Source of the DNA: Escherichia coli
Lineage (GTDB): Bacteria; Pseudomonadota; Gammaproteobacteria; Enterobacterales; Enterobacteriaceae
Strand: one strand, 5' to 3'
Assembly (NCBI RefSeq): GCF_003334765.1
Contig: NZ_QOWT01000003.1
DNA length: 64,000 bases
The position numbers were made by a program. Shown piece after piece: positions 13,201 through 25,200 of this stretch. Position 1 is the stretch's first letter; every line of letters begins with the position of its first letter.

Positions 13201-16200
13201 ACGATCTCCCGGAAGGCGTTTATAACGAGCAGTTCAAAAAATGGGACCTCGGCGACATCCTCGGCGCGAAAGGTAAGCTGTTCAAAACCAAAACCGGCGA
13301 ACTGTCTATCCACTGCACCGAGTTGCGTCTGCTGACCAAAGCACTGCGTCCGCTGCCGGATAAATTCCACGGCTTGCAGGATCAGGAAGCGCGCTATCGT
13401 CAGCGTTATCTCGATCTCATCTCCAACGATGAATCCCGCAACACCTTTAAAGTGCGCTCGCAGATCCTCTCTGGTATTCGCCAGTTCATGGTGAACCGCG
13501 GCTTTATGGAAGTTGAAACGCCGATGATGCAGGTGATCCCTGGCGGTGCCGCTGCGCGTCCGTTTATCACCCACCATAACGCGCTGGATCTCGACATGTA
13601 CCTGCGTATCGCGCCGGAACTGTACCTCAAGCGTCTGGTGGTTGGTGGCTTCGAGCGTGTATTCGAAATCAACCGTAACTTCCGTAACGAAGGTATTTCC
13701 GTACGTCATAACCCAGAGTTCACCATGATGGAACTCTACATGGCTTACGCAGATTACAAAGATCTGATCGAGCTGACCGAATCGCTGTTCCGTACTCTGG
13801 CACAGGATATTCTCGGTAAGACGGAAGTGACCTACGGCGACGTGACGCTGGACTTCGGTAAACCGTTCGAAAAACTGACCATGCGTGAAGCGATCAAGAA
13901 ATATCGCCCGGAAACCGACATGGCGGATCTGGACAACTTCGACTCTGCGAAAGCAATTGCTGAATCTATCGGCATCCACGTTGAGAAGAGCTGGGGTCTG
14001 GGCCGTATCGTTACCGAGATCTTCGAAGAAGTGGCAGAAGCACATCTGATTCAGCCGACCTTCATTACTGAATATCCGGCAGAAGTTTCTCCGCTGGCGC
14101 GTCGTAACGACGTTAACCCGGAAATCACAGACCGCTTTGAGTTCTTCATTGGTGGTCGTGAAATCGGTAACGGCTTTAGCGAGCTGAATGACGCGGAAGA
14201 TCAGGCGCAACGCTTCCTGGATCAGGTTGCCGCGAAAGACGCAGGTGACGACGAAGCGATGTTCTACGATGAAGATTACGTCACCGCACTGGAACATGGC
14301 TTACCGCCGACAGCAGGTCTGGGAATTGGTATCGACCGTATGGTAATGCTGTTCACCAACAGCCATACCATCCGCGACGTTATTCTGTTCCCGGCGATGC
14401 GTCCGGTAAAATAAGCATTACGTTATGCTCACAACCTCGGCAAATGTCGGGGTTTTTTTATTTAAGCTGGGTAAATGCAGATAATCGTTTTCTGGCTTCG
14501 CGATTTGTCGCCTGCATCACCATCCACGGACTGAACGCCCACGGCGTGGCATCAATACCGTGTAATACATCTGCTAAATCACACCATTGATAATCCATCA
14601 CTTCATCATCATTGATCTGTAACGCACTAGTGGTGCGTGCGGCAAATACCGGACACACTTCATTTTCCACAATGCCACTCGGATCGGTGGCGCGGTAGCG
14701 AAAGTCAGGATAGATAGATTCAGGAGGCGTAATTTCCACGCCAAGCTCATAACGGCAACGGCGGATCACTGCGTCTTCGTTGCTTTCTCCCAGTTGTGGG
14801 TGCCCACAAACCGAGTTAGTCCACACGCCAGGCCATGCTTTTTTGCTCAGTGCGCGGCGGGTAACTAATAATTGTCCTTTGGCATTAAACAGCCAACTGG
14901 AGAACGCGAGATGTAAGCGGGTGTCTGCCGTGTGTGCGGCATACTTTTCCAGCGTACCCGTGGGAACTCCCTGTGCATTCAATAAAATGACGTGTTCCGT
15001 TTGCATAATTTCTCACATGTAATTCTGATCACTCATCATTATAGATAATTGAAGAGTGAAATGATTAACCAAGTGAGCGTTTATCGACAACCGCCCGTTT
15101 TGAGCGGATGCCGACAGGTAAAAACCATTTAAAAAAGTAGCATCATATATTTGAAGCGACTTTCAATGGCCATTGCAACACAGTCAGAAATGACAGGAAT
15201 AGAGAGAGTAAAAAGCAACAACAGACTGAATATAGCGCGCATTAAAAAATTCATATTATTCTCCATGCTCATTTTTCTTCAGCTTGCGCATCAGAAGCCA
15301 CATACGTACTGTCCTGACTTTTAAATCTTTATCAGAGACGGATTCCTTCACCAGGTCAGCATGATGCTGATAGCCATTAAAGAAGACGTTCAGCACAACG
15401 GCGCTAAGGGTTGCGAGCATAATGCCGCTATGTAGCAGCGGTTGCAGTACGGCCGGTAACTTAGAAAAGAAATCGTGAGAGAGCGTCGGAGTCATGCCAA
15501 CGCCGAGACTGATCGCCACAATATAGAGGTTGTAACGGTTGGTGGTGTAGTTACAGCGCGACAGAATTCGAATCCCTGTCGCCAGTACCATGCCGAACAT
15601 CACTAGACCAGCGCCGCCCAGCACAAATTGCGGAATGGAGGCTACCAGCACCGCCATTTTTGGCACCATGCCAAACAGGATTAATATAATTCCCGAAGAA
15701 ATACACACCCAGCGGCTATGAACGCGCGTCACGCTAACCAGGCCAACGTTTTGAGAAAATGACGTGTGGGGGAAGCTGTTAAACGTGCCGCCTATCATTG
15801 TCCCTACGCCATCGACACGCAGCCCGCGAATAATATCGTGCGAAGAGAGTTTACGACCGACTATTTCACCCAGTGCCAGGAACATCCCCATCGACTCGAT
15901 AAACACGATGATTAACACGGCAGTCATGGTCAGAATGGAAACGGGATCGAAAATCGGCATACCAAACGACATCGGCGTAACAATCGCAAACCATGAAGCA
16001 TCATGTAGCCCGGATAAATTGACTTCATTCATCATCCACGAAAGTAAAAAGCCAAATACAATCCCCAGTAATACGGCGACGTTGGACATAAATCCTTTCG
16101 CATAGCGAGTAATGAGCAAGATAAAAATTAAGACGGCAAAGGAGATACCTAAATAAACGGGATTACCATATTGCGGATTCCCTTTACCTCCGGCGGCCCA

Positions 16201-22200: not shown

Positions 22201-25200
22201 AATAAACCGCAGCGCAGAGGCAATCTCTTCCGGGTTATCGATCGTACGGGTGACATCAATAAAACTGCCTCGTACCGCTTTTAACGTGTGTTCTCCTGAC
22301 ATCATTGACTCCTTTACTGTTAATCCATCTCTTCCGCTGAGGTAATACCAGGCAGAACGTTTTCCTGTCGGTAGCCACCAGGGAGGATAATATTTAATAA
22401 AATCGCAGTTAACCCGCCAGCACAAATAGGGTTTTCAACTAATACATAAATAGAGGCTGGCAATATTTTAAAAATTTCGGGATCGTAGGAGACGCCAAGC
22501 CCTAAACCTAAAGAAGTGGCGACAATAAGTGTTTCACGGCGCTTTAAACCGTTGGTGATGATGATGCGAATCCCTGCGATGGCAATCATGGAAAACATCA
22601 ACGTCATTGCGCCTCCCAGAACTGCCGAGGGAATGGTCGTGAAGAAGCCGCCAATCATCGGAAATAAGCCGAGGATAACCAGCATTACCGCGATGGTTCG
22701 CCCGACATAACGTGAAGCGACGCCAGTCATCTGAATAACCCCATTATTTTGCGCAAACGTGGTTAATGGTAATGAACCGACAGCGGAGGCGATAACAGAA
22801 ACCAGACCATCTGCCAGCACGCCGCCTTTCAGCCGGGACTGATACTCTTCCCCCTGAATGGGGCGGCGGGAAACCATTGCCGTGGCGGTGATATCGCCGA
22901 CTGCTTCCAGCACGCTAAGCAGATAAATCGTGCCAACCACCAGGAACTGATGGAAGCTAAAACTAAAGCCGTATTTGAACGGATGCGGGATGGTGATTAA
23001 CGGCAAATTGCGCATACTGCTGAAATCCACCATGCCCAGGCATAACGATGCGATATAGCCGACACATAGCCCAATGGCGATCCCTCCCATGCGTAGCAAC
23101 GGACTGCGACAGCAGTTAAAGCCGATCACCACAATTAAAACCAATAAACCAACGCCGAGATGTTCGTAATTGCCGAACGTACCGCTGCTTTTGGCTGCAA
23201 ATCCTCCACCAAAATCGATAATGCCGACTTTAATCAGGCTTAAGCCGATCATCAGTACCACAATACCGCTGACGGTAGGCGTAATAACCCGACGTAAATA
23301 GGGCAAGATAAATGAAGATCCGACAACCAGAAATGCGCCAACGAAGGAGACGCCGAGAAGCGACGACATGATTAACTCTTCGTGAAAACCGTCGCTTTTC
23401 ATGCTGCTGCCCAGCGCAATCATGACCGTAACAAATGAAAAATTGACTGACTGAATTGAGAGTAGGCCAGAACCGACGATGCCGTAGCGGTTTACTTGTA
23501 ACCAGGTACCAATACCAGAGGCGATCATCGCCATAGAAACAAGATAGGCAGTTGTTTCAGCGGAAAGCTGTAAGGCCGCACCCACGATTAACGCGGGGGT
23601 TACCATCGGAACGAAAATTGCCAACAGATGGGTAATGGCACCAACGAGAGCCTGATGAAAGGGAGGGCGATCCTCCAGTTCAAATATAAGGTCAGAACCT
23701 GCATGGTTTATATCAGACATCCCTTCACTCCTTTTAAAGTAAATTTGATCATCTGAATTAGTAAAATAAATTCCCACGAATTTGGGGCGCAGGACGCCTT
23801 GAGAACGGCTTATCTCATTTTCGCAGTCACTATTTAGTCATCGTTCAAACAGAGAAACAGGCCGCCGAAGCGGCCATTTATTATTTATATTTTTTCCAGC
23901 GCAGTGAGTATTTTCTCCGGTGTGAAATGCCATTCGCGTAACCAGATGCCGCATGCATCGTGAATTGCGGTAGCAATCGCCGGAGCTGCGCCATTTACAC
24001 CGATTTCCGAGATCGATTTCGCCCCGAACGGGCCGACTTTATCGTCGCTCGGCACCAGCACAGCGCGGAAATCACGCGGAATGTCACCAATTTTCGGTGC
24101 GCCGTAACTGCGTAAATCACGCGTTAACGGGTGACCTTCGGCGTCATAAATGATCTCTTCGCTCATACTGTGGCCGATAGCACGCAGGGTGGCACCGTAG
24201 ATTTGTCCCAACGCTAACTCTGGATTGACCGGTGTACCGCAGTCCAGCAAGGCGTAGAATTTATCCAGGCGGATTTCACCCGTACGCGTGTTGACGGCAA
24301 CTTCAGCGAAGTTTGCGCCATACGGGAAGGCGAAATCAGGCGTGATATAACTGCCAGTTCCCACCAGTGAACCAAAGCCGGTGCCGGTTTCGCCTTTATG
24401 GGCAATATCCCCGAAACTAACTTCGCCTTTCTTGCCGCGCACGACGCCCGGCGTTGCCAGTTGAACATCTGCCACTGGCTCACCCAACATTTGCGCGCCG
24501 TGGAACAGAATTTTCTCCCGTAGATTTTCCGCTGCCAAACGCGCCGCGTTACCCGAGAAGCAAGTACCGGACGAGGCATATGCGCCTTTATCAAACAACG
24601 CATGATCGGTATCACCGGAGATAACATGCACGTCCTGCGGTGGGCAGTGCAGCACTTCTGCTGCCAGTTTCGTCACTACAGTATCCAGACCAGTACCAAT
24701 ATCCGCACCGCCAGAATGAACGATAAAGGTGCCGTCCGATTCCAGTTTGATCATGCAGTTAGCCTGATCGATATCCGGGATACCCGATTTCTGCATGATA
24801 ATGGCGACGCCGCGACCGATGTGCCAGTCACCATTTTGCGGTTTCGGTGACGACCATTGGATCATCTCGCGACCCTGACGCAGGATCTCTTCCAGTGCAC
24901 AGCTGGCGGCGGAAGGAACGGAGGTCGGCGCTTTACCTTCACCGATTGCACCGAGAATTTTCAGCTCTTGCCCTTCGTGTACCCGGTTACGTTCGATAAT
25001 TTCCAGTTGGTCGATCTGTAACTGTTCAGCCAGTTCCGCTAATGCCATGGTGATAGCGAAGTTACCTTTCGGTGCGCCATAACCCTGATAAGCACCATTT
25101 GGGCAAATGTTGCTGTAGTAGGTGGTGACCTGGAAATCGACGTTATCGCACGGATATAACGGCAGCGACAGCGCCGGTCCGTTACACGGTACGGTGAGTG

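Follow-up and report, generated by a model that had tools for sequence, protein, structure and literature searches.

Bacterial NCS2 nucleobase transporters are split between a NAT branch (COG2233) and an AzgA-like branch (COG2252) (PMC6308229), and Escherichia coli carries ten NCS2 genes (PMC3809563). PMC6070649 and the EcoCyc update (PMC5210515) assign distinct specificities to individual E. coli members, with XanQ transporting xanthine, UacT urate, and GhxQ and GhxP guanine and hypoxanthine; the substrate of ygfQ was identified in 2013 (Papakostas et al., 2013, cited in PMC5210515), and the gene was renamed ghxQ (PMC5210515, PMC6308229, PMC6070649). In the reductive pathway of urate degradation, XdhD-YgfM reduces urate to isoxanthine, after which YgfK, SsnA, HyuA, YgeW, YgeY and YgeX act one after another (bioRxiv 10.1101/2025.05.19.654654 / PMC12507026), while XdhA oxidizes xanthine to urate (PMC12507026; also 10.1101/2022.07.24.501321), and YgfT, which urate induces, has been implicated in urate use that depends on formate (10.1101/2022.07.24.501321; PMC12507026). 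Here we analyze a 64,000-nucleotide (nt) segment of the E. coli chromosome (contig NZ_QOWT01000003.1, hereafter the window), which runs from gcvP through the ETT2 type III secretion island and in which uacT, ygfT-ygfS, ghxQ (ygfQ), guaD and xanQ occupy positions 15256-23720. We conclude that this is very probably the known E. coli locus for purine uptake and catabolism, with three importers feeding successive steps of the pathway.

The two ends of this interval coincide exactly with the stop codon of uacT and the start codon of xanQ, and translation showed every open reading frame within it to be intact. The uacT gene (ygfU; 15256-16704, minus strand) encodes a urate/H+ symporter of the NAT/COG2233 branch with 482 amino acids, as judged by annotation and translation. 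On the opposite strand lie ygfT (uacF; 17140-19059), encoding an Fe-S/flavin oxidoreductase of formate-dependent urate utilization according to annotation, literature and NCBIfam (NF009451, 1502 bits; cutoff 1154), and ygfS (19059-19547), annotated as a 4Fe-4S dicluster protein, with HydN-like and AegA N-terminal-like NCBIfam matches. The minus strand then carries ghxQ (19583-20950), whose 455-residue product, of the AzgA-like/COG2252 branch, owes its designation as a guanine/hypoxanthine transporter to the literature; guaD (20986-22302), for the guanine deaminase that converts guanine to xanthine (annotation; TIGR02967, 632 bits, cutoff 375); and xanQ (ygfO; 22320-23720), for a 466-residue xanthine/H+ symporter of the NAT/COG2233 branch. 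Gene calls were taken from the RefSeq annotation of a near-identical strain (14 differences over 39 kb), with which the gene identities, the coordinates and the interleaving with guaD and ygfT/ygfS proposed in an earlier sequence-only reading of this DNA agree exactly. A 9-kb query (15000-24000) was 100% identical to several complete E. coli chromosomes, and of the 5426 complete genomes of the species, 5155 (~95%) carried the block at 80% coverage or more.

The enzymes that would use the imported purines are encoded next to the transporters. Directly upstream of xanQ, on the same strand, lies xdhD-ygfM-ssnA-ygfK (23885-32011), encoding the enzymes that begin the published pathway of reductive urate breakdown, and the annotation places arcC/yqeA, hyuA, ygeY, dpaL/ygeX and ygeW (minus strand), ygeV (plus strand, encoding a sigma-54 activator) and xdhCBA (minus strand) in 35678-47765. 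In the proposed scheme, GhxQ would bring in guanine and hypoxanthine, and GuaD would deaminate guanine to xanthine; XanQ would bring in xanthine, and XdhABC would oxidize hypoxanthine and xanthine to urate; and UacT would bring in urate, which XdhD-YgfM, YgfK, SsnA, HyuA, YgeW, YgeY and YgeX would degrade by the reductive route; YgfT/YgfS are implicated in the use of urate with formate. Three proton-coupled importers of the NCS2 superfamily, each with its own published specificity, would in this way supply successive steps of one pathway. Because the importer substrates are distinct, match the adjacent enzymes and are accompanied by conserved synteny with xdhD (see below), each importer can be read as feeding a successive step, which supports the suggestion of the sequence-only reading that several distinct purines are taken up into one catabolic hub. 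That reading also described the ygfQ substrate as less well defined than the others, a view outdated by the presence of a guanine/hypoxanthine transporter in the literature since 2013, and the transport assays of each permease that it proposed are likewise already in the literature. Two points weigh against the scheme: the specificities reach us via secondary sources, and deletion of ygfQ, singly or together with yjcD, left sensitivity to base analogues unchanged, so that its native role is unproven (PMC3809563). The genes, substrates and pathway have been published, and the finding is thus correct but already known.

All three permeases belong to the NCS2 superfamily (PF00860; TC 2.A.40), matching the Pfam hidden Markov model Xan_ur_permease over its full length: UacT at 8.5e-124 (model positions 2-386 of 389), XanQ at 2.1e-110 (positions 1-388) and GhxQ at 1.8e-80 (positions 1-388). 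UacT and XanQ are 26% identical (BLASTP E = 7e-39), score 454 and 455 bits against NCBIfam TIGR00801 (ncs2; cutoff 291.8), which places them in NAT/COG2233, and carry the NAT signature, searched as [QEP]-N-x-G-x4-T-[RKG], in the forms QNVGLVSVTR (residues 318-327 of UacT) and QNNGVIQMTG (residues 324-333 of XanQ). For GhxQ, BLASTP against XanQ and UacT returned nothing significant (E = 0.37 and 0.43), the NCBIfam search gave zero matches, TIGR00801/NCS2 included, and the search for the NAT signature gave none. Profile-profile comparison of GhxQ with XanQ/UacT, based on shallow alignments, was colinear and weak (E = 0.018, probability 2.5%), and its superfamily membership therefore rests on Pfam. 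The solved relatives of GhxQ in the PDB are the plant transporters AZG1 (5.6e-36) and AZG2 (2e-26), and it is 82% identical to E. coli GhxP; by these similarities GhxQ is assigned to the AzgA-like/COG2252 branch, where the literature also places it (PMC6308229, PMC6070649). XanQ matches fungal UapA (4e-54), followed by UraA (~1e-13 to 1e-15) and human SLC23A1 (2e-11). From the solved homologues UapA (5i6c), UraA (3qe7) and AZG1 (8irl), the three proteins are predicted to adopt a fold of 14 transmembrane segments in a 7+7 inverted repeat, with core and gate domains. The designation of the trio as three paralogous NCS2 transporters thus stands for the full-length PF00860 matches that all three share, whereas GhxQ is related to the other two at the superfamily level only.

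Scanning species-representative genomes once with GhxQ yielded 80 loci, on which homologues of the window proteins were placed by tblastn. In 25 of the 80, guaD lies directly upstream of ghxQ, and in 22 of those 25, within the available sequence, xdhD is found just upstream with xanQ between; such xdhD-(xanQ)-guaD-ghxQ loci include those of Edwardsiella, Kluyvera, Hafnia and Aeromonas, and that of Morganella, which is without xanQ. All three transporters are present in 10 loci, and in 8 of these ghxQ and uacT are separated, as in E. coli, by an oppositely oriented ygfT that ygfS may or may not accompany. In a Citrobacter metagenome-assembled genome, Klebsiella indica and C. amalonaticus (L009, L011 and L007), uacT directly follows ghxQ on the same strand without ygfT/ygfS; the C. 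amalonaticus locus ends upstream of guaD and hence falls outside the ten. The stable core of the locus is xdhD-(xanQ)-guaD-ghxQ, whereas uacT and ygfTS make up a terminal module that varies, and the distribution of ygfTS looks like insertion or loss. The other 55 loci hold a lone GhxQ-like gene with 81-88% identity, and the lone gene of Atlantibacter has E. coli ghxP as its best match. The ghxP gene is present in all 5426 E. coli genomes, and several AACGTTTGC PurR-type half-sites, unlike at ghxQ, are seen in its upstream region (L085 2700-3000). This pattern fits a division in which ghxP is the salvage copy and ghxQ the copy of the catabolic cluster.

How the transporters came to lie together, and whether their position has meaning, can be read in other ways. 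Chance juxtaposition without functional significance draws on the number of NCS2 genes in E. coli, ten of which make some proximity possible (PMC3809563), and on the rare strains that lose the whole block by IS1-associated deletion without obvious harm. In a simulation of 10 random positions on a 4.64-Mb circle, three fell within 8.5 kb with P ~1.2e-3 (~6e-4 when computed by gene order), at least 10 genera share the gene order of the locus, and the transported substrates match the adjacent enzymes; chance is accordingly the least credible of the alternatives, and the clustering is more than chance given the simulation and the conservation across genera. An origin of the trio from a single transporter gene, duplicated in tandem at this site and then diverging, would account for the common PF00860 domain, the spacing within 8.5 kb and the shared strand, but it would be very surprising for proteins as far apart as UacT and XanQ, at merely 26% identity, and GhxQ, for which pairwise comparison with the other two detected no similarity and profile-profile comparison gave only the weak score. 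GhxQ is nearer to plant AZG1, and XanQ to fungal UapA, than the two are to each other, and therefore both branches predate the cluster. As each permease is nearer to eukaryotic homologues than to its neighbors, the cluster was assembled by recruiting transporters of ancient and separate descent and did not arise through duplication in place.

The most serious alternative is that the permeases serve purine salvage, that is, the supply of nucleotides, and lie beside catabolic genes only incidentally. Guanine, hypoxanthine and xanthine are all salvageable, through Gpt and Hpt. Salvage would also suit the fact that the YgeV iModulon list, which takes in the catabolic genes, does not include xanQ, guaD or ghxQ. 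Against it stand the inclusion in the operon of guaD, a catabolic step, the fact that urate is not salvageable, and the position of ghxQ next to xdhD-(xanQ)-guaD in 22 species loci, Aeromonas and Morganella included. A PurR-box search of the window found no PUR box near xanQ or ghxQ, and the universal twin GhxP, with its 82% identity and its AACGTTTGC half-sites, fits the salvage role instead. On balance we consider salvage unlikely and retain the reading of the locus as one that feeds catabolism.

The genes xanQ, guaD and ghxQ probably form a three-gene operon, as suggested by the short same-strand gaps (17 nt between xanQ and guaD, 35 nt between guaD and ghxQ), by flanking hairpins and by a gene order conserved in at least 20 species loci. 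One of the hairpins, GC-rich, lies in the interval between the convergent ygfS and ghxQ (19554-19577) and is strong and terminator-like on the minus strand, with a 9-bp stem followed by TTTCTTTC; the other, GGCCGC-TTCG-GCGGCC (23860-23875), is located just past the xdhD stop, upstream of xanQ, and is kept in most enterobacterial loci. The ygfT stop and the ygfS start overlap by 1 nt, and uacT is monocistronic, divergent from ygfT across 435 bp. A generic scan for sigma-70 promoters and terminators gave promoter-like matches at or below the number expected from shuffles, and we claim no sigma-70 promoter; across the whole window, an Rfam scan matched only a naRNA4 element and a tRNA outside the locus (see below), and neither a purine riboswitch nor any other RNA element within it.

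The YgeV iModulon includes uacT, ygfT, xdhD, ygfM, ssnA, ygfK, hyuA, ygeWXY and xdhABC (PMC10602906), and xanQ, guaD and ghxQ are not in the list (PMC10602906). The notion of one catabolic hub therefore holds metabolically but not as a single regulatory unit, given this split and the different conserved upstream elements of the two groups of genes. Upstream of uacT, pattern matching revealed a sigma-54-type promoter motif, TGGCACTCCACGAGCA (16773-16788, minus strand), 69-84 nt from the ATG. In all nine loci with divergent uacT and ygfT, from six genera (the window and L005, L008, L010, L012, L022, L023, L034 and L040), the motif takes the form AACTGGCAY-N5-NNGCATG, with GG and GC invariant and the spacer and surroundings variable, and the upstream alignment shows it to be absent from all three loci in which uacT directly follows ghxQ; the uacT ATG and its Shine-Dalgarno sequence are kept from genus to genus. 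Conserved alignment columns ~50 nt upstream of the -24 element of the sigma-54 motif mark a CRP-like site, TGTGATTGCCTCCGCA (16823-16838, minus strand), which in Buttiauxella is a perfect TGTGA-N6-TCACA; comparison by eye with the CRP consensus makes it a candidate CRP site, and it is consistent with reported glucose repression (PMC12507026).

Farther upstream, ~120 nt from the -24 element, lie two conserved repeat units, CCAGAATGATTAA and TATCAATATGAGAA, 21 bp apart (16898-16929, minus strand). The 14-mer TATCAATATGAGAA (16898-16911, minus strand) has one other exact copy in the window, upstream of ygeW (42116-42129, minus strand), and near-copies upstream of xdhA (47935-47969, plus strand) and, in degenerate form, of ygfK (32268-32282). 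Allowing up to 3 mismatches, 20 matches were found in the window against 7.3 expected, a number reached in none of 100 shuffles. TATCAATATGAGAA is present upstream of uacT in 7 of the 8 loci having ygfT between ghxQ and uacT, and motifs of this type are rare in ghxP-type loci. A recurrent 14-mer-like match inside guaD (21819-21832) was dismissed as a coincidence of conserved coding sequence. Chromatin immunoprecipitation sequencing (ChIP-seq) sites for sigma-54 have been published upstream of xdhA, ygeW and ygfK (PMC4591121), and these agree with pattern matches at 41900-41915 (ygeW), at 32084-32099 (ygfK) and with an xdhA site. The distances from the 14-mers to the sigma-54 sites downstream of them, ~100-215 bp, fit an enhancer for a sigma-54 activator, presumably YgeV, and the repeats are a candidate for this enhancer. 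Several observations weigh against this reading of the uacT upstream region. The sigma-54 pattern shows no enrichment over the window as a whole (48 matches against 40 expected from shuffles), and the uacT site is singled out only by its position and phylogenetic conservation. The main table of the sigma-54 ChIP-seq study is without a uacT site, the sole peak in this intergenic region being ygfT-proximal, ~300 bp off (PMC4591121), and promoters of the YgeV iModulon gave no consistent footprints in a massively parallel reporter study. The published ygfT-proximal site (OS32; PMC4591121) corresponds to a weak sigma-54 match, TATGCCCGTTTATTGCA (17077-17093, plus strand), whose conservation across genera is limited to its TTGCA half.

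The xanQ-guaD-ghxQ operon is preceded by a different element, TAATTCAGATGATCAAATTTAC (22 nt, also TGAATCAGATGATCAAATTTAC; 23739-23760, minus strand), 19-40 nt upstream of the xanQ ATG, which forms an imperfect palindrome, AATnnGATnATCnnATT, and is a candidate operator. It is near-invariant in Escherichia, Citrobacter, K. indica, Atlantibacter, Kluyvera, Pluralibacter, Trabulsiella, Edwardsiella and Serratia sp. DD3, is absent from the aligned Buttiauxella and Aeromonas loci, and has just one further, weak copy in the window; the xanQ upstream region contains no copy of the 14-mer TATCAATATGAGAA. Compared by eye with the consensus sites of CRP, FNR, Cra, PurR and Fur, the palindrome fits none of them. 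The PurR-box search yielded only two matches in the window, each with 3 mismatches (16736-16751 and 42007-42022), and 9 of 100 shuffles reached two; the uacT-proximal match is conserved in Escherichia and Citrobacter only, and we treat it as unproven.

From these sequence features we infer at least two regulatory modules at the locus, one comprising uacT (and ygfT) in a sigma-54/YgeV-type regulon, to which it is assigned because of the conserved sigma-54-type promoter, the CRP-like site and the 14-mer common to uacT and ygeW, and another comprising xanQ-guaD-ghxQ with its own promoter region. More specifically, and only tentatively, the transporters might be split over two control circuits, with uacT driven by the sigma-54 promoter with TATCAATATGAGAA as the YgeV enhancer, and xanQ-guaD-ghxQ controlled through AATnnGATnATCnnATT by another regulator, a proposal that we hold to be somewhat more likely wrong than right. 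Such a split has not been described before at the sequence level, and the candidate cis-elements are the only part of this work that may be new.

Among the complete E. coli genomes, at least two carry IS1 in uacT; in strain YZ22PE244 (L002 1021-1718) the element accounts for 777 extra bases and splits the gene into two pseudogene fragments. In one further strain an IS1-associated deletion has removed ygfT through ygeV, so that IS1 now lies between the upstream region of uacT and xdhC, and in another all of uacT-xdhA is gone, leaving an idi-IS1-actS junction; IS1 was located at the two deletion junctions at L003 11059-11756 and L004 9095-9792. On the other side of uacT, between idi and the uacT stop, two very small proteins, YqfH (plus strand) and YqfG (minus strand), are annotated in 15061-15254, and yqfG starts one base past the end of uacT. 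Elsewhere in the window, prfB (11789-12887, plus strand) is annotated as two joined pieces in keeping with its programmed +1 frameshift, and an Rfam match (75 bits; 5599-5676, minus strand) between trhA and ygfZ corresponds to naRNA4 (CssrE), a nucleoid-associated noncoding RNA. A tRNA gene (49014-49084, plus strand; annotated in related strains as tRNA-Gly) precedes the ETT2 island (49200-64000), which includes ygeH, PrgH/EprH and EscU-type genes and is variable, with 80% coverage or more in only 2988 of 5426 genomes.

The locus feeds the degradation of urate and purines by gut bacteria, a pathway now linked to host urate homeostasis. To what has been published on it, the present analysis adds that the transporter trio does not consist of recent paralogues, a map of core and add-on modules across genera, and candidate cis-regulatory elements, which could help to define the still uncharacterized YgeV regulon; if the proposed role is true, TATCAATATGAGAA would be the long-sought YgeV enhancer, recurring ahead of ygeW and xdhA and, more degenerate, ahead of ygfK.

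Compared with E. coli K-12 as represented in EcoCyc and RefSeq, uacT, ghxQ and xanQ are identical genes in the same order and at the same coordinates, with no difference in coding content, and the locus is the same. The gut-bacterial cluster for reductive (anaerobic) urate degradation (xdhD, ygfK, ssnA, hyuA, ygeW, ygeX and ygeY) adjoins xanQ-guaD-ghxQ on the same strand, and uacT and ygfT share iModulon membership with its enzymes; the papers on this pathway center on the enzymes, and the sole transporter mentioned is UacT, as a neighbor (PMC12507026). With the structurally characterized NAT/COG2233 transporters (Aspergillus nidulans UapA, E. coli UraA and human SLC23), XanQ has sequence similarity, and UacT and XanQ share the NAT motif, whereas GhxQ differs in having neither a match in sequence searches nor the motif. 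GhxQ instead resembles the AzgA-like/COG2252 group (A. nidulans AzgA, Arabidopsis AZG1 and AZG2, and E. coli GhxP, AdeP and AdeQ), with matches to AZG1, AZG2 and GhxP. GhxP shares its published substrates with GhxQ (PMC6070649), but its gene is solitary, beside soxR and yjcE and with PurR-type half-sites upstream, whereas ghxQ is the third gene of the catabolic operon.

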